This document shows positions 1 to 29,258 of a DNA stretch of 64,000 bases, one piece after another. The notes under the pieces are model-generated. The model did not search any database, was not told where the DNA came from, and saw nothing but the letters and a program-made list of their open reading frames with translations. Source of the DNA: Phycisphaerales bacterium (lineage in GTDB: Bacteria; Planctomycetota; Phycisphaerae; Phycisphaerales; UBA1924); NCBI GenBank assembly GCA_029260435.1, contig JAJDDG010000005.1, forward strand, positions 1 through 64,000. The letters are read 5' to 3'. Position 1 is the stretch's first letter, and every line of letters begins with the position of its first letter. A program made the position numbers and the translations under genes.

Positions 1-144
1 AAGAAATCATCTTCCGATGCCAAGCCCGACTCGAAAGACACTAAGGCAGACAAAGCGTCTGCTCCCAGCGATAGCGCCGAGAAATCCAAACCCGCTTGCG
101 ACCCCGCCAAGCCGAGCAAGCCAGACACAAAGAAGTCCTGAGCA

Positions 145-23079: not shown

Positions 23080-26000
23080 TCACAGGATATCGCGCAGGAA
23101 TTTCCCCGTGAACGATGTCTTGTGCTTCGCCACCTGCTCGGGTGTGCCGTTCGCGACGACCATCCCGCCCTTGTCGCCACCCTCGGGCCCGAGATCGATG
23201 ATCCAGTCCGCCCGCTTGATCACGTCCAGGTTGTGCTCGATCACCACAAGCGAGTTCCCCTGATCCGCTAATCGATCCAGAACCTCCGTCAGCTTGCGCA
23301 CGTCCTCAAAATGCAGCCCCGTTGTCGGCTCATCCAGCACGTACAGCGTGTGCCCCGTCGAGCCCTTGCCCAGTTCCGTCGCGAGCTTCACGCGTTGCGC
23401 TTCGCCGCCCGACAGAGTTGTAGAGGGCTGCCCGAGTTTGATGTACCCGAGCCCGACATCCCGCAGACATTCGGCGAACCGCGCGATCTTCGGGTGGCTC
23501 TCGAAAAACCCGCACGCCTCCTCCACCGTCAGATCCAGCACCTGCGCGATTGTTTTCCCGCGGTAATCGATCTCCAGCGTCTCGCGGTTGTACCGCGCGC
23601 CCCGGCACACCTCGCACTCCACGAACACATCGGGCAGGAAGTGCATCTCGATCTTCTTCACACCCTGCCCCGTGCAAGCCTCGCACCGACCGCCCTTCAC
23701 ATTAAACGAGAACCGCCCCACCTGGTACCCGCGGATCCGCGATTCCTTTGTCGCCGCAAATACCTTCCGCACATCGTCGAATAGCCCGGTGTACGTCGCT
23801 GCATTCGAGCGCGGTGTCCTCCCGATCGGCGACTGGTCCACCTCGATAATCCTGTCGATGTGGTGCGCACCGTTGATGCGCGAGTGCGCGCCGGGCTTCA
23901 CCCGCGTGCCCGTCACCGCTTTGCGCACCGCCGCGAGCAGGATGTCGTTCACGAGCGTGCTCTTGCCAGATCCGGACACACCCGTCACACAGACAATCCC
24001 GCCCACCGGGAACGCCGCGTCCACGTTCTTCAGGTTGTTCTCGCTCGCCCCCTTCACTGTCACAGCCTTCTTCGCGTCCAGCTTCCGGCGCGTGCCCGGG
24101 ATCTCGATCCGCCTCTCGCCCGACAGGTACGACCCCGTCAGCGACTCGGGCACCGCGCACAACTCCGCGATCGTCCCCTGCGCAACAACCTCCCCGCCGT
24201 GCACACCCGGGCCCGGCCCGATGTCCACCACATGATCCGCCGCCGCGATCATGTCCGCGTCGTGCTCCACCACGATCACCGTATTGCCGATATCCGCGAG
24301 ATGCCGCAGCGTCTCGATCAACCGGTGGTTGTCCCGCTGGTGCAGCCCGATGGTCGGCTCGTCGAGCACGTAGCACGCGCCGACCAGCCCCGAGCCCACC
24401 TGCGTCGCCAGGCGGATCCGCTGTGCCTCGCCACCCGAGAGTGTCGCCGTTTTGCGCGACAGACTCAGATACCCGAGCCCCACAGATTGCAGGAACCCCA
24501 GGCGTGCGCGCACCTCTTTGAGAATCGGTTCGGCGATCCGCCGGTGCTCCTTCGTGAGCACGACCGAATCCATCACCCGCAGCGCGTGCTCGATGTCGAG
24601 CCTCGTGAAATCCGAGATGTTGAACCGATGGGGCGACGGATCGAGCCCGTGGCGCCGCCTCGGCTCGATCGCTTCGTCCGCGAGCGCCTCGTCGGTGCGC
24701 ATCATCACCGCGAGCGATTCGATCCGCAGGCGATCCCCCTCGCACGTCGGGCAGGGCGTCTGCGACATAAACGTAGACAGCCACTCCTTCACGCTGTCGT
24801 TCTCGGTCGAGCCCCACCAGGAAATAATATTGGGCAGCACGCCCTCGAACTTGCCCTTGTATTTTTTCTGATCGTCCTTCGTCAGCCCGTAGAGCAGGAT
24901 CCGGCGCTGCTCCGCGCTCATCCGGTTCACCGGTGCGCTGTACGAAAACCCGACCATTTTGCAGTACCGCTTGAGCTTCCGGTTGAACCACGCCCGCACC
25001 GGCCCGTTCTTGTTCCACGCCGCGATCGCCCCGCTGCTCAGCGATTCCGATTCGTTCGGGATCACGAGCGACTCGTCGAACTCCATCAGGTTCCCCAGAC
25101 CGTCGCATTGCCTGCACGCGCCGAACGGCGAGTTGAACGAAAAAATCCGCGGCTCAAGCTCCTCCAGCGCGCACTCCGGGTGCGCCGCGCACGCGTACTT
25201 CTCCGAGTACGTCGTCTCGCTCCAATCCTTGTCCTTCCCCTCGACCGCGATCACCACAGTCCCCTCCGCGATCCGCAGCGCCGTCTCCACCGACTCCGCG
25301 AGGCGCTGCCTCGACTCGGGTTTCACCACAACCCGGTCCACCACCGCCTCGATCGTGTGCTTCTCGTAGCGCCCGAGCCCGAGCGGGTTCTCCCCGCCCT
25401 CCTTCAGCGCATCATGCACGTCCACCACATCCCCGTTCACCCGCGCCCGCACAAACCCCTCGCGCTGCAGCCCCTCCAGCACCTCCTTGTGATGCCCCTT
25501 CTTCGCGCGCACCAGTGGTGCAAGCACCATCAGCCGCGTCCCGTCCCCCATCGACGCGACATGATCCGTGATCTGCGTCGGATCAGAAGACGAAATCTCT
25601 TCCCCGCACCGCGCCGTGACCCGCCCGCCCTTCTTCGTCTTCGTCTGGTGCCAGCACGTCGGCGTGCCGCACCGCGCGAACAACAGCCGCAGGTAGTCGT
25701 AGATCTCCGTGCTCGTCGCAACAGTCGAACGCGGGTTGTGCCCGCTCGACCGCTGCTCGATCGCGATCGTCGGCGGGAGCCCTTCAATGGACTCCACATC
25801 CGGCTTCTTCATCTGGTCGAGGAACTGCCGCGCATACGCCGACAGGCTCTCCATGTATTTCCGCTGCCCCTCCGCGAAGATCGTGTCGAACGCCAGCGAA
25901 CTTTTGCCCGACCCGCTCAGCCCTGTGACCACCACCAGCTTGTCCCGCGGGATATCCACATCCAGCGATTTGAGGTTGTGCTCCTTCGCCCCGCGCACCC

Positions 26001-26229
26001 GAATCACACGCAACGCCCCCCCGACGGATGCCGCGATCTTCTTCGCGCTCACCTTCCGCAAAACCTTCTTTGTTGTTTTCTTGGCGACCTTCTTGCTCAC
26101 CTTCTTATTCCGTGTGCGCGAAGGGGAGGGTGGGGGGGTGACGCGCTTCTTCTTGCTCACAACTCGTTTCGTCTTCCCTGGCACAGCCTGCTCTCTCCTC
26201 GTTCGCGCACCCCCCGCCGCAATCGCCAT
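23080..26229 (-). CDS. uvrA: excinuclease ABC subunit A with a lysine-rich N-terminal extension
   Basis: Two ABC modules and zinc-finger Cys clusters, full length. The start at 26229 is preferred over 26298 because it avoids overlap with the upstream gene. Residues ~20-90 are KKKR/VSKKVAKKTTKKVLRKVSAKK. Confidence 0.95.
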   Translation of the reverse strand: MAIAAGGARTRREQAVPGKTKRVVSKKKRVTPPPSPSRTRNKKVSKKVAKKTTKKVLRKVSAKKIAASVGGALRVIRVRGAKEHNLKSLDVDIPRDKLVVVTGLSGSGKSSLAFDTIFAEGQRKYMESLSAYARQFLDQMKKPDVESIEGLPPTIAIEQRSSGHNPRSTVATSTEIYDYLRLLFARCGTPTCWHQTKTKKGGRVTARCGEEISSSDPTQITDHVASMGDGTRLMVLAPLVRAKKGHHKEVLEGLQREGFVRARVNGDVVDVHDALKEGGENPLGLGRYEKHTIEAVVDRVVVKPESRQRLAESVETALRIAEGTVVIAVEGKDKDWSETTYSEKYACAAHPECALEELEPRIFSFNSPFGACRQCDGLGNLMEFDESLVIPNESESLSSGAIAAWNKNGPVRAWFNRKLKRYCKMVGFSYSAPVNRMSAEQRRILLYGLTKDDQKKYKGKFEGVLPNIISWWGSTENDSVKEWLSTFMSQTPCPTCEGDRLRIESLAVMMRTDEALADEAIEPRRRHGLDPSPHRFNISDFTRLDIEHALRVMDSVVLTKEHRRIAEPILKEVRARLGFLQSVGLGYLSLSRKTATLSGGEAQRIRLATQVGSGLVGACYVLDEPTIGLHQRDNHRLIETLRHLADIGNTVIVVEHDADMIAAADHVVDIGPGPGVHGGEVVAQGTIAELCAVPESLTGSYLSGERRIEIPGTRRKLDAKKAVTVKGASENNLKNVDAAFPVGGIVCVTGVSGSGKSTLVNDILLAAVRKAVTGTRVKPGAHSRINGAHHIDRIIEVDQSPIGRTPRSNAATYTGLFDDVRKVFAATKESRIRGYQVGRFSFNVKGGRCEACTGQGVKKIEMHFLPDVFVECEVCRGARYNRETLEIDYRGKTIAQVLDLTVEEACGFFESHPKIARFAECLRDVGLGYIKLGQPSTTLSGGEAQRVKLATELGKGSTGHTLYVLDEPTTGLHFEDVRKLTEVLDRLADQGNSLVVIEHNLDVIKRADWIIDLGPEGGDKGGMVVANGTPEQVAKHKTSFTGKFLRDIL

Positions 26230-26276
26230 GATAGCGCACCGAGAGCCACTTGGGTAGGTGGTTGTTTGGGGTCCGC

Positions 26277-26933
26277 CTATCGTCTCCGGATCAGACACCA
26301 GGGCTGATCGTTCACCACCACCCGGTGCCGCATCCGCTGGGCGCGAAGCCCGCGCTCAGCGCACGCCCTGCGGATCCACTTCAGCGAGTGGTAGATCAAT
26401 CCCCCCTCAGCAGATTCGTGCGATTTGCCGACCCACTCGTCCCCCCAGTAATCCCGACCCGCCAAGAGCCGCGTCGGGCGCCACGACGCCAGGAACACGC
26501 AATCGTCCGTCCCGTGCGCGACCACCGAATCGAGCATCTGCCCGATCTGACGCTTGCTCGCGTGCGACCAGATAGACCGCGCAATGAAATGCGTGAACCT
26601 CGTCGGCGCAAACGCCGAACAGTCGAACCGGTCGTTGTGGTCGAACCGCGGGTGTTTCAGCGCGTTCATCTCCGGCGTGAGGAACTCCGCGATCCCCTTC
26701 TCCACCATGTGCTCCATCGGCTCGAGCCCGCAGTAGTTGCCCGCATCAATGAGCGGGATGATCCACTTCCCCCCACGCAGGCACCCGCAGCCGAAATCGC
26801 ACACCGTCGAGGTCGGGACGAGCCCGTAGTCCAACAACGCCGCGAGCTGCTCGCGACCCGCGCGATCGAAGTCCTGAGGCGGCCCGCCCAGGAATGCAGC
26901 ATTGATCGGCTTGTCGTTCGTCGGGTCCGTCAT
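26277..26933 (-). CDS. class I SAM-dependent methyltransferase
   Basis: VCDFGCGCLRGG glycine-rich SAM motif; 218 aa; sits between uvrB and uvrA. Confidence 0.7.
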   Translation of the reverse strand: MTDPTNDKPINAAFLGGPPQDFDRAGREQLAALLDYGLVPTSTVCDFGCGCLRGGKWIIPLIDAGNYCGLEPMEHMVEKGIAEFLTPEMNALKHPRFDHNDRFDCSAFAPTRFTHFIARSIWSHASKRQIGQMLDSVVAHGTDDCVFLASWRPTRLLAGRDYWGDEWVGKSHESAEGGLIYHSLKWIRRACAERGLRAQRMRHRVVVNDQPWCLIRRR

Positions 26934-26958
26934 CGGTGCACAGAGTATCGACCACCGC

Positions 26959-29121
26959 TCACACCGGCTTGCGGGATTGTTTCCCGCTCTTACCCGTGAT
27001 CCCCGCTCGGCTGCGAGGCATCCCCGGCTTCTTCTTCCGGCTCAAGCCCACCACCTCGTCCAGCTCCGAGCGTTTCACGTGCCCGCCCTCGTCAAACAAC
27101 CCCGGGTTGTCCCGCAGAGCCGCGAGCTGATCCCGGAGCGTCGCCGCCTTCTCAAACTCCAAAGACTGCGCCGCTTTCAGCATCTCCTCTTCCAGCATCT
27201 CGAGCAGCTCGTCCCGGGCAAACGACGGCTCCTGATCCGCGCAGTTCTGCGCGACCGCCTCCCGCGCGGTCTTGCGTGCCTTCAGCTCGTCTTGGATCCC
27301 CGTCCGCACCGCCTTCACGATCGATTCGGGTGTGATCCCGTTCGCGCTGTTGTACGCCTCCTGCTTCGCCCGCCTCCGCTCCGTCTCGTCGATCGCGGTC
27401 TGCATCGCGGGCGTCATCGTGTCCGCGTACAGGAACACCTTCCCGCCGACGTGCCGCGCCGCGCGCCCGATCGTCTGCACGAGCGATGTCGCCGAGCGCA
27501 GGAACCCGGTCTTGTCCGCGTCGAGGATGCACACGAGCGACACCTCGGGCAGGTCCAGCCCCTCGCGCAAGAGGTTCACGCCAACCAGCACGTCAAACTC
27601 CCCGAGCCGAAGATCCCGCAGGATCTCCACCCGCTCGAGCGTGTCGATCTCCGAGTGCAGATACCGCACCTTCACCCCGTTGTCCCCGAGGTACGTCGTC
27701 AGATCCTCGCACAACCGCTTCGTCAGCGCCGTCACCAGCACGCGCTCGCCCCGCCCCGCGCGCTCCTTGCACTGCGCTAACAAATGCGGCACCTGCTCCG
27801 CTGCCGAATGAATCTCCAACTCCGGATCGAGCAAGCCCGTCGGGCGGATAATCTGCTCGACGATCTCACCACCCGTTCGCTCCATCTCATACGCCGCGGG
27901 CGTCGCGCTCACATACACACACTGCGGCACAACCTCCTCAAACTCCTCGAACGTCAGCGGCCTGTTATCCAAGGCGCTGGGCAGGCGGAACCCGTGCTGC
28001 ACCAGGGTCGTCTTCCGCGCTTTGTCCCCGTTGAACATCGCCCGCACCTGCGGGAGCGTCACGTGCGATTCATCGATAAACAGCGTCCACCCCGTCCCGC
28101 CGTGCATCTTCGCCGCAGGCCCGTGCTCGAAATAATCCAGCAGCGTGTACGGCTTCTCCCCCGGTGCCCGCCCGTCCAGATGCCGCGAATAATTCTCGAT
28201 CCCCGAGCAATATCCCACCTCCTTGATCATCTCCATGTCGTACTTCGTGCGCGCAAGCAGCCGCTGCGCTTCGAGCAGCTTCCCCTCGCTCCGCAGGTGC
28301 ATCACCTGCTTGTCCAGTTCCTCCTTGATCGACGCCACCGCCTCATCAAGCGACCCCTCCTCGGTCACGTAGTGCACCGCCGGGAACACGAAGAACATGC
28401 TCTCCTCAGCAAGAATCTCGCCCGTCAGCGGATCGATAAGCGAGATCCGTTCGATCTCATCGCCGAACAGCTCAACACGAACCGCGAACTGCTCGTACGC
28501 CGGGTACACATCGATCGTGTCCCCGCGCACCCGGTACTGCCCGCGCGCAAACTCCACCTCGTTCCGCTGGTACTGCATCTCCGCCAGCGCGAGCAGAAAT
28601 TCGTGCCGGTCAAGCTCCCGCCCCTTGGCGAGCGTGAATACCCGATCCTGATACGCCGTGGGCGAGCCCAGCCCGAAGATCGAGGACACCGAAGCAACAA
28701 CAATCGTGTCCTTCCGCGTGAGCAGGTTGCTTGTCGCCGCGAGCCGCAGCCGGTCCAGATCGTCGTTCCGCGAGGCGTCCTTCTCGATGTAGATATCCCG
28801 CTGCGGGATATACGCCTCGGGCTGGTAATAGTCGTAGTACGAAACAAAGAAGCTCACCGCGTTGTGCGGGAACAGATCCTTCATCTCCTCGTACAGCTGC
28901 GCCGCGAGTGTTTTGTTGTGCGACAGGATCAACGCCGGGCGCTGCAACTCCGCGATCACGTGCGCCATCGTGAACGTCTTGCCTGTCCCCGTCGCGCCCA
29001 GCAGATTCACCGCCCGATCCCCCGCGCGCAGCTTCTGAGCCATCGCCCGGATCGCCGCGGGCTGGTCCCCCTTGGGCGTGAGCGGGGAAACAATCTCAAA
29101 TGCTTTGTCTGTCTTCAGCAC
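26959..29121 (-). CDS. uvrB: excinuclease ABC subunit B with a basic C-terminal tail
   Basis: GATGTGKT Walker A, helicase motifs and a UvrB/UvrC interaction region. The final ~40 aa are K/R-rich. Confidence 0.95.
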   Translation of the reverse strand: MLKTDKAFEIVSPLTPKGDQPAAIRAMAQKLRAGDRAVNLLGATGTGKTFTMAHVIAELQRPALILSHNKTLAAQLYEEMKDLFPHNAVSFFVSYYDYYQPEAYIPQRDIYIEKDASRNDDLDRLRLAATSNLLTRKDTIVVASVSSIFGLGSPTAYQDRVFTLAKGRELDRHEFLLALAEMQYQRNEVEFARGQYRVRGDTIDVYPAYEQFAVRVELFGDEIERISLIDPLTGEILAEESMFFVFPAVHYVTEEGSLDEAVASIKEELDKQVMHLRSEGKLLEAQRLLARTKYDMEMIKEVGYCSGIENYSRHLDGRAPGEKPYTLLDYFEHGPAAKMHGGTGWTLFIDESHVTLPQVRAMFNGDKARKTTLVQHGFRLPSALDNRPLTFEEFEEVVPQCVYVSATPAAYEMERTGGEIVEQIIRPTGLLDPELEIHSAAEQVPHLLAQCKERAGRGERVLVTALTKRLCEDLTTYLGDNGVKVRYLHSEIDTLERVEILRDLRLGEFDVLVGVNLLREGLDLPEVSLVCILDADKTGFLRSATSLVQTIGRAARHVGGKVFLYADTMTPAMQTAIDETERRRAKQEAYNSANGITPESIVKAVRTGIQDELKARKTAREAVAQNCADQEPSFARDELLEMLEEEMLKAAQSLEFEKAATLRDQLAALRDNPGLFDEGGHVKRSELDEVVGLSRKKKPGMPRSRAGITGKSGKQSRKPV

Positions 29122-29149
29122 GCCGCGATTCTACGTGCCACATTTCCCT

Positions 29150-29258
29150 GTGCCACTGACCTCCCCGAAGGGAAGGTCAGTGCTCTTCTCCCTACATCTT
29201 CCGTGTGGCATATCCACGCTGCAGCGCCGGGTGCCACTGGCGGCTTGTCCGCCAGTGC
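29150..29258. repeat. adjacent family 1 and family 3 (GGGTGCCACTGGCGGCTTGTCCGCCAGTGCC) palindromes in the uvrB/permease divergent intergenic region
   Basis: Two perfect hairpins 45 nt apart. Family 3 is also the head of the 230-bp element. Confidence 0.8.

Follow-up and report, generated by a model that had tools for sequence, protein, structure and literature searches.

UvrA of bacteria is the textbook example of an ancestor without a tail, with which eukaryotic repair enzymes and their disordered basic tails are usually contrasted. Class II UvrA proteins lack the UvrB-binding domain. The uvrBA operon of Bacillus subtilis is the textbook case of linkage between uvrB and uvrA.

Lysine-rich, low-complexity appendages are known from other bacterial proteins that act on DNA. 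The C-terminal lysine repeats of Streptomyces topoisomerase I (TopA) stabilise the TopA-DNA complex and raise processivity (PMC5714199). In Mycobacterium smegmatis Ku, removal of the lysine tail increased the affinity for DNA, and repeated independent evolution was proposed for the PAKKA tails of Ku and Hlp (PMC3553676). Deinococcus Dps1 and HU possess flexible lysine-rich N-terminal extensions for which DNA contact was proposed or shown (PMC6300522). The C-terminal domain of the eukaryotic linker histone H1, the chlamydial proteins Hc1/Hc2 and AlgP are likewise polycationic, lysine-rich and disordered. Here we analysed a uvrB-uvrA locus within a stretch of 64 kb from a Phycisphaerales bacterium (from here: the window), in which UvrA bears an N-terminal tail with predicted disorder and a strong positive charge.

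The uvrB-uvrA locus

An open reading frame (ORF) search placed uvrB (26959..29121), an ORF of 218 aa for a methyltransferase (26277..26933) and uvrA all on the minus strand. The three genes are contiguous at the positions given in the original prediction, and the tail peptides that it quoted for UvrA and UvrB are both present verbatim. The intergenic gaps measure 25 nt and 92 nt, and no terminator-like site was found between the genes.

The linkage of uvrA and uvrB had been regarded as unusual, which did not hold: uvrB was found upstream on the same strand in 18 of the 80 loci examined, 5 of them from Phycisphaerales and 13 of the Firmicutes type. The arrangement resembles the uvrBA operon of B. 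subtilis and other Firmicutes, where uvrB directly precedes uvrA on one strand, but the two genes are parted by a variable gene slot, 0.4-2.3 kb long, in the window as well as in other Phycisphaerales. Other Phycisphaerales carry in this slot a sulfotransferase, a glycosyltransferase or CorA together with an unrelated methyltransferase, or else no obvious gene. The locus is the damage-recognition pair of nucleotide excision repair (NER), uvrB...uvrA, with an unrelated small methyltransferase gene in the variable slot. Apart from the UvrA tail, everything here is ordinary, including the linkage, the methyltransferase and the UvrB tail.

UvrA core

The uvrA ORF spans 23080-26229 from an ATG, extends to 26298 from the longest GTG and covers 23080-26184 from GTG 26184. 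Its canonical core of ~977 aa (23080..26013, minus strand) was delimited by Pfam, NCBIfam and PDB alignments and by motifs, and contains two ABC modules, the UvrB-binding domain, the insertion domain and the putative zinc modules. The Pfam domains UvrA_inter, UvrA_DNA-bind and ABC_tran were recognised, and the protein scored well above the cut-offs of the NCBIfam equivalog NF001503 (1372.6 bits, cut-off 1147, residues 75-1049 aligned) and of TIGR00630 (1300.3 bits, cut-off 729.8). The UvrB-binding domain (PF17760) occupies residues 218-329 (E 4e-31) and the DNA-binding insertion domain (PF17755) residues 385-485 (E 7e-21). Walker A motifs are located at residues 103 (GLSGSGKS) and 750 (GVSGSGKS), LSGG signatures (LSGGEAQR) at 597 and 939, and the CxxC pairs of zinc modules 2 and 3 at 372, 493, 849 and 872. 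In zinc module 1, a 13-aa insertion spaces the first pair as C-x15-C, and this pair reads Ser/Ser in some relatives.

UvrA of the window is a class I excinuclease ABC subunit A, fully canonical beyond its tail. It shares the full domain set and equivalog-level score with the class I enzymes of E. coli, Geobacillus, Thermotoga and M. tuberculosis, the last of which aligns end to end with residues 77 to 1048. It differs from these in the insertion, which is basic and separates the two cysteines of the first pair in zinc module 1, and in a disordered polycationic N-terminal tail of 57-72 aa that no solved or profiled UvrA protein possesses. The alignment to solved UvrA structures begins only at residue 76-77. 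The profile matches of UvrA and UvrB stop short of their tails, so that neither tail is covered by the family profiles.

Composition and distribution of the UvrA tail

Counted from the GTG, the tail (26014..26184, minus strand; MPGKTKRVVSKKKRVTPPPSPSRTRNKKVSKKVAKKTTKKVLRKVSAKKIAASVGGA) has 57 aa, and its delimitation draws on in-frame conservation, an AlphaFold2 (AF2) model and alignments. Its composition is K16 V8 S6 P5 T5 R5 A5 with no D or E, giving a net charge of +21. Lysine accounts for 28% of the tail versus 5.7% of the UvrA core. Since this content is reached despite a genomic GC content of ~64%, and since no other polycationic stretch with lysine exists in any of the six frames of the window, selection for lysine is indicated. 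AF2 assigned residues 1-71 a pLDDT of 29-47, with about 30 for the tail, and no secondary structure, compared with 82-98 for the following core, so that the disorder prediction proposed as a check favours the tail as a disordered, strongly cationic region.

The tail had been called histone-H1-like, which is apt for its composition and does not extend to a domain. Searched alone against Pfam, it gave no match at E up to 10, and neither a linker-histone (PF00538) or Hc1 domain nor regular repeats of the AKKA/PAKKA/KPAA type were found in it; Tandem Repeats Finder (TRF) returned a weak 12-nt repeat of 2.4 copies (score 37). The resemblance to H1 is compositional only. One SPxR-type motif is shared with the H1 family, whereas the winged-helix globular domain and the Hc1 domain are missing, and the tail is rich in V/S/T/K and not dominated by A/P/K as in H1, Hc1 and AlgP. 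It resembles the repeats of actinobacterial topoisomerase I in being a lysine-rich, low-complexity, lineage-specific appendage of variable length on an enzyme of DNA transactions (PMC5714199), but the enzyme is another one, the appendage is N-terminal instead of C-terminal, and the function of the UvrA tail is a proposed one. Like Ku of M. smegmatis, UvrA is a bacterial DNA-repair protein with such a tail in only some relatives (PMC3553676), while the PAKKA repeats of Ku and Hlp are regular and A/P-rich and the UvrA tail is irregular. The Deinococcus proteins Dps1 and HU match it in the flexible N-terminal position of the extension (PMC6300522), yet these are nucleoid-associated or protective proteins and UvrA is an ATP-driven damage sensor.

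An alignment of orthologs, likewise proposed as a check, located N-terminal UvrA extensions of 13-107 aa exclusively in one Phycisphaerales clade of a neighbour-joining tree; in loci of other phyla the UvrA N-terminus is short, at about 2-11 residues. Net charges within the clade range from -2 to +24, with the window at the extreme, and reach +10 or more in the window and in P0001, P0002, P0007, P0029, P0031, P0067 and P0103. Among relatives' tails the lysine richness is kept, with differing sequences and lengths. Judged from these sequences, the extensions characterise a single clade within Phycisphaerales; both their sequence and their length change rapidly in evolution, and several sublineages of the clade have strongly lysine-rich versions.

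Possible roles of the UvrA tail

The tail likely serves as an electrostatic DNA tether. As a flexible polycation it would make salt-dependent, sequence-independent contacts with the DNA backbone, would hold the UvrA2(B2) search complex at or close to the nucleoid, and may favour sliding, hopping or intersegment transfer in the search for damage. The lysine-rich tails of actinobacterial topoisomerase I, mycobacterial Ku/Hlp and Deinococcus HU/Dps1 are precedents for such action. The link to condensed nucleoids and a raised affinity for DNA that the original prediction drew is conjectural. As loss of the Ku tail raised DNA affinity (PMC3553676), the direction of a tail effect is unpredictable.

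Further observations count against a tether. Charges in the clade run from -2 to +24, so that the polycation is dispensable in close relatives and the region may be weakly constrained, and non-synonymous changes separate two close relatives at 22 of the 55 tail codons. A translated tail without a role in DNA search would accommodate this divergence and the variation in length from 13 to 107 aa. It could be a drifting, weakly constrained linker or a polycation for another polyanion or process, such as polyphosphate granules, RNA, membrane phospholipid, regulated proteolysis or control by lysine acetylation; the H1-like protein AlgP associates with such granules (PMC9239181). We consider this rather unlikely, given that two or more separate subclades show enrichment in lysine although the mutational background is GC-rich, that the tail is fused to a DNA-scanning enzyme and that the characterised bacterial precedents found all involve DNA (PMC5714199, PMC3553676, PMC6300522).

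A bolder extension of the tether, which we regard as doubtful, would make the UvrA and UvrB tails the bacterial equivalent, evolved independently, of the disordered basic tails found on repair enzymes of eukaryotes. The NER search complex would then use intersegment transfer to move, or gather on a compacted nucleoid, and the tail charge might be tuned between lineages, or via lysine modification, to the chromosome packaging of each Phycisphaerales lineage.

Start codon and translation of the tail

UvrA probably starts at GTG 26184 (MPGKTK...) and not at ATG 26229, as suggested by comparison with the closest relative, L081, whose UvrA core is 93% identical. A Shine-Dalgarno-like element, GAGGAGAGAG (26191..26200, minus strand), can be read 10 nt upstream of this GTG and is identical in L081. 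The segment from ATG 26229 to the GTG (26185..26229, minus strand; MAIAAGGARTRREQA) differs from L081 at 4, 3 and 4 sites in the three codon positions; 1 codon is changed synonymously and 6 are changed non-synonymously. The segment is probably a 5′ leader, not coding. On L081 and on contig L083, which is identical to it in sequence, the called gene begins at this GTG and includes the tail, and a UvrA start of the form MP followed by a lysine-rich stretch is common to L001, L024, P0007, P0103 and P0117. The lysine-rich tail of the original prediction is thus upheld, while its length of ~70 aa is better given as ~57 aa than ~72 aa, the GTG start being likelier.

Relative to L081, the tail contains a frame-preserving 3-nt indel, and its 55 aligned codons comprise 19 identical, 14 synonymous and 22 non-synonymous ones. 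Differences by codon position amount to 17, 13 and 29 (chi-square versus a uniform split p ~0.03, in a single pairwise comparison of 55 codons), and GC3 is 0.77 in the UvrA frame versus 0.46 and 0.52 in the other frames. The original prediction would have fallen if the true start were downstream of the tail. The tail would then be an annotation artefact and the lysine-rich frame an untranslated leader: TTG 26013 and GTG 26007 lie in frame exactly at the canonical N-terminus (M-(R)-V-I-R-V-R-G), preceded by a G7 run, and GC-rich genomes commonly have open frames upstream of genes, with 720 open codons in L008. These two codons are, however, CTG and GAG in L081, where the tail is kept. The third-position bias, the high GC3 in this frame only, the 3-nt indel, the gene calls on L081 and L083 and the recurrence of in-frame lysine-rich extensions from ATG or GTG in independent lineages also speak against an artefact, which we deem very improbable. 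Because it is in frame in relatives and the canonical-position start lacks conservation, the comparison indicates that the tail is really translated and part of the protein.

The methyltransferase between uvrB and uvrA

The gene in the slot (26277..26933, minus strand) encodes a class I SAM-dependent methyltransferase, recognised by its AF2 fold, Foldseek and motif I and belonging to an uncharacterised family. Sequence support was weak, with a match to Pfam Methyltransf_12 below the cut-off (E 0.001, 20.2 bits, cut-off 30) and none to NCBIfam. Its fold bore out the original assignment: the AF2 model has a pLDDT of 91.2, and Foldseek gave a probability of 1.00 and a TM of about 0.6 to MfnG, ChlM, DnrK and TylM1, which are small-molecule and sugar methyltransferases. 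There are 135 homologs, some of them named class I SAM-dependent methyltransferase, and motif I, DFGCGCLRGG, is invariant in 42. Those with 55-59% identity occur among glycosyltransferases, sulfotransferases and a polysaccharide flippase and not beside uvr genes; no homolog was found beside uvrA in 80 other loci. A DNA- or NER-associated methyltransferase was considered and rejected, as none of the 50 best fold matches is a DNA methyltransferase and homologs occur in glycan loci. The gene is probably incidental cargo.

That the three genes form a functional module, in which the enzyme methylates the lysine-rich tails of UvrA or UvrB, or DNA, and so tunes repair, would fit the single strand, the tight packing without a terminator-like site, the conservation of the arrangement in L081 and the presence of a different methyltransferase between uvrB and uvrA in L024 and L082; it is highly unlikely, as the close homologs belong to glycan or polysaccharide loci, the tail-bearing UvrA of L001, L024 and L082 occurs without this methyltransferase, the enzyme of L024/L082 lies on the opposite strand and is unrelated beyond motif I (hhalign probability 20%), a sulfotransferase or glycosyltransferase fills the slot in other lineages and the nearest folds are not protein-lysine or DNA methyltransferases.

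UvrB and its C-terminal extension

UvrB (720 aa, GTG start; ORF, Pfam, NCBIfam and PDB evidence) is excinuclease ABC subunit B, with helicase core, UvrA/UvrB interaction domain and C-terminal UVR motif. Pfam identified UvrB_inter, UvrB, Helicase_C and UVR; residues 8-671 match the NCBIfam equivalog NF003673 (1001.2 bits, cut-off 743), and the match to a PDB UvrB has an E of 4.7e-244. The UVR coiled-coil motif (PF02151; residues 637-670; 27112..27213, minus strand) is where proteins of the family normally end, and the solved UvrB structures reach no further than 669-672. Beyond these alignments follows an extension of 49 residues (672-720; 26962..27108, minus strand; NPGLFDEGGHVKRSELDEVVGLSRKKKPGMPRSRAGITGKSGKQSRKPV), with a net charge of +7 overall and +10 in its last 27 residues. 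The motifs V(K/R)RSE(L)(D/E) and (K/R)PGxPGx(R/K)xG, followed by a K/R-rich end, are conserved in Phycisphaerales (uvrB of L001, L003, L004, L023, L024, L081 and L082 plus fragments P0121-P0134), and basic post-UVR extensions are present in many divergent UvrB clusters. The basic end noted originally is therefore real, but the tail is neither merely basic nor special. It more likely mediates a contact with a partner or DNA through its motifs, which would be common to many bacterial lineages. We found no description of these seemingly widespread extensions in the literature.

Conclusions

With moderate confidence, we favour a locus consisting of the NER pair and a cargo methyltransferase, in which the translated UvrA tail would act as a DNA-contacting polycation and the UvrB tail through a motif-mediated contact. 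The lysine-rich UvrA tail is new but belongs to the known theme of polycationic tails, and is of modest interest. It bears on start-codon annotation in Phycisphaerales genomes of this kind; beyond the tail, this annotation and the UvrB extensions, the locus is ordinary. The clade, with tails from neutral to +24, provides a natural series on one otherwise identical enzyme, suited to testing how a polycationic tether relates to affinity, sliding or hopping and salt dependence in the search for damage.

Layout of the locus and identity of the proteins

On the minus strand, uvrB (26959-29121, a 720-aa ORF with a GTG start) is followed by the ORF of a 218-aa methyltransferase (26277-26933) and by uvrA, which runs from the ATG at 26229 to 23080. 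The longest uvrA ORF extends to GTG 26298 and overlaps the preceding gene. The three genes are co-directional, with intergenic gaps of 25 nt and 47-92 nt, and a promoter/terminator scan found no terminator-like site between them. The same scan yielded one promoter-like site against 0.7 expected, no excess over chance. This sole sigma-70-like match (GTGGCA-17-TAGAAT, minus strand, 29128-29156) ends 7 nt ahead of the uvrB GTG and, if real, would render the uvrB mRNA nearly leaderless.

Both UvrA and UvrB contain complete Pfam domain sets. The NCBIfam equivalogs matched UvrA over residues 75-1049 with 1372.6 bits (cut-off 1147) and UvrB over residues 8-671 with 1001.2 bits (cut-off 743). Alignments to solved UvrA structures began at query residue 76-77 and those to solved UvrB structures stopped at 669-672 in every case. 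The tails that the original prediction had placed on the two proteins thus lie outside the equivalog profiles and all solved-structure alignments, and are therefore genuine additions to an otherwise canonical UvrA and UvrB. Among one-genome-per-species GTDB contigs, the nearest UvrA relatives were Phycisphaerae/Phycisphaerales MAGs with 60-75% identity, which assigns the window to this order of planctomycetes.

Translation and start codon of the UvrA tail

At 64% GC, open frames by themselves mean little as evidence of coding. The decisive comparison was with contig L081 of the closest relative, in which the UvrA core is 93% identical and the gene order is the same. The tail aligned in frame with one 3-nt indel. 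Among 55 aligned codons, 19 were identical, 14 synonymous and 22 non-synonymous, with 17, 13 and 29 differences at codon positions 1, 2 and 3. The GC3 of the tail is 0.77 in the UvrA frame versus 0.46 and 0.52 in the two other frames.

Between 26229 and the UvrA core there is no ATG, but GTG and TTG codons do occur in frame, among them TTG 26013 and GTG 26007, which coincide with the canonical N-terminus. L081 has CTG and GAG at these positions; therefore, a start without the tail is not conserved. Two isoforms, a long one from GTG 26184 and a short one from TTG 26013 or GTG 26007, were likewise rejected on the replacement of both short-form codons in the nearest relative.

The stretch from ATG 26229 to GTG 26184 had no coding signature relative to L081, although over few sites (1 synonymous versus 6 non-synonymous codons; 4, 3 and 4 differences by codon position). 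Within it, GAGGAGAGAG, located 10 nt upstream of GTG 26184, is perfectly conserved in L081. The counterpart of GTG 26184 is the start in the gene calls on L081 and on the sequence-identical Logan contig L083, and an N-terminus of MP followed by a lysine-rich segment is common to the window, two other loci (L001, L024) and the homologs P0007, P0103 and P0117. UvrA thus most likely begins MPGKTKRVVSKKKRV..., at GTG 26184. The lysine-rich part of the tail, kept with either start, is translated as had been proposed, and the length is shortened from 72 aa (ATG) to 57 aa.

The uvrA gene call on L081 (7177-8442) ends after 421 aa on a contig of 3.8x coverage, probably owing to an assembly frameshift and not to a genuine truncation.

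Composition and distribution of the UvrA tail

The 57-aa tail contains 16 lysines, 5 arginines and no acidic residues, giving a charge of +21; its lysine content is 28% versus 5.7% in the core. Across the six frames of the 64 kb, no other stretch is both polycationic and lysine-bearing. The sole other lysine-rich stretch is of mixed charge, a K/S/D/P-rich low-complexity tail (KKSSSDAKPDSKDTKADKASAPSDSAEKSKP...TKKS*) at the C-terminal end of a protein running off the window start (1-141, plus strand). In an AlphaFold2 model built with 120 homologs, UvrA residues 1-71 had pLDDT values of 29-47 and were without secondary structure, compared to 82-98 in the core after the tail. Confidence was also low at residues 800-880, which is due to N-terminally truncated homologs in the alignment and not to biology.

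Neither the UvrA tail alone nor the UvrB tail alone matched Pfam. A tandem-repeat search of the tail DNA returned a single weak 12-nt repeat of 2.4 copies; hence, the tail is not built from regular repeats. Because, in addition, its composition is V/S/T/K-rich and not A/P/K-rich, the designation H1-like holds for charge and disorder but not for homology.

When the 120 best UvrA homologs were placed in a neighbour-joining tree, all extensions (13-107 aa) fell into one clade, while 5-8 residues precede the first strand in homologs outside it. The extension was absent from the UvrA loci of other phyla (Firmicutes, Calditrichota, Spirochaetota and others). Within the clade the net charge of the extensions varies from -2 to +24, with the window protein at the extreme, and at least two of its subclades have strongly lysine-rich tails (window/P0001/P0002, possibly with P0019, and P0007/P0029/P0031/P0036).

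In zinc module 1 of UvrA, the first Cys pair, which reads CPTC in M. tuberculosis, is split in the window by a 13-aa basic insertion (CWHQTKTKKGGRVTARC; 25606-25656, residues 192-208 in ATG numbering). In one subclade of the relatives (P0005, P0007, P0008, P0010, P0015, P0022, P0025, P0029-P0031, P0036) both Cys are replaced by Ser, a pattern suggestive of zinc module 1 degeneration in these Phycisphaerales.

Gene linkage, the methyltransferase and the UvrB tail

The linkage of uvrB and uvrA, initially considered unusual, is ordinary: among 80 loci examined, uvrB and uvrA were co-directional with uvrB upstream in 5 other Phycisphaerales and 13 Firmicutes-type loci, and the genes are linked in L082, too. 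The gap between them in Phycisphaerales is a variable slot, in which sugar- or small-molecule-modifying genes differ by lineage and include two unrelated class I methyltransferases. It holds a TPR-sulfotransferase in L003 (4347-5822), a GT4 glycosyltransferase in L004 (4605-5813), a Methyltransf_11 protein unrelated to the window methyltransferase plus CorA in L024 (4014-5818), a homolog of this L024 methyltransferase in L082 (2097-2663) and 0.4-0.5 kb without a clear gene in L022 and L023. L024, whose UvrA is tail-bearing, belongs to the complete genome of 'Phycisphaerales bacterium ac7' (CP159477), which carries no MAG label and may represent a cultured organism.

The 218-aa protein in the window slot is a class I methyltransferase of an uncharacterised family. 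Its motif I does not vary among 42 homologs, its AlphaFold2 model has a pLDDT of 91 and the top fold matches were small-molecule and sugar methyltransferases. Homologs with 55-59% identity neighbour glycosyltransferases, sulfotransferases and a polysaccharide flippase. With such glycan-type neighbourhoods and the varying slot contents, a conserved uvrB-methyltransferase-uvrA triad was rejected; the methyltransferase is best read as incidental cargo rather than a repair factor.

The basic UvrB tail (26962-27108, minus strand, residues 672-720, beyond the UVR motif) is present as predicted but not distinctive; it contains the motif KPGMPxSRAG. Post-UVR extensions of 38-62 aa were found in all recovered Phycisphaerales uvrB genes (L001, L003, L004, L022-L024, L081, L082), mostly with the motif order V(K/R)RSE(L)(D/E), (K/R)PG(M/A/T)PG(S/T)(R/K)xG and a K/R-rich end, compared to 0-9 residues in Firmicute UvrB. 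Searching a word-indexed database with the C-terminal fragment returned mostly short gene fragments, and was replaced by an exhaustive profile search that covered 1.84 billion representatives. The latter revealed many divergent UvrB clusters with extensions of 30-350 aa, often terminating in a similar G(K/R)PGTR...GK(R). Among representatives P0322-P0461, many divergent clusters had basic ends of the (K/R)PG(T/M)(P)G.R..GK/R type, some on extensions of 100-350 aa. Almost no tail-bearing clusters carried names (one had Chloroflexota labels), so that the breadth of occurrence is judged here by sequence diversity and not by named taxa. On these sequence comparisons, the UvrB tail is a motif-bearing feature common to many lineages and not peculiar to this genome. 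We found no description of the post-UVR motif in the literature.

Discussion

A canonical UvrA carries a translated, disordered tail of charge +21, the lysine richness of which recurs by lineage against a GC-rich background. The original observation was confirmed with a corrected start codon and its interpretation, in which the link to a condensed nucleoid is putative, is supported in part; nothing is out of the ordinary in the linkage, the methyltransferase or the UvrB tail. Our literature search yielded nothing specific on lysine-rich or disordered tails of UvrA or UvrB. Lysine-rich appendages are known from bacterial DNA-transaction proteins; the tail described here is a variant of this theme, for which we found no UvrA report.

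The proposal that the tail raises nonspecific DNA affinity has to be weighed against three points. The tail charge varies among members of the clade instead of being conserved. An H1-like polycation can serve polyphosphate instead of DNA, as in AlgP (PMC9239181). Moreover, one of the analogues, the M. smegmatis Ku protein, runs the opposite way, as its affinity rose once the tail was removed (PMC3553676). The lysine repeats of Streptomyces TopA stabilised the enzyme-DNA complex and conferred higher processivity (PMC5714199), and Deinococcus Dps1 and HU provide a third analogue (PMC6300522). By analogy with these proteins, the UvrA tail may act as an electrostatic, sequence-independent DNA tether, which would alter the search behaviour of UvrA2(B2).
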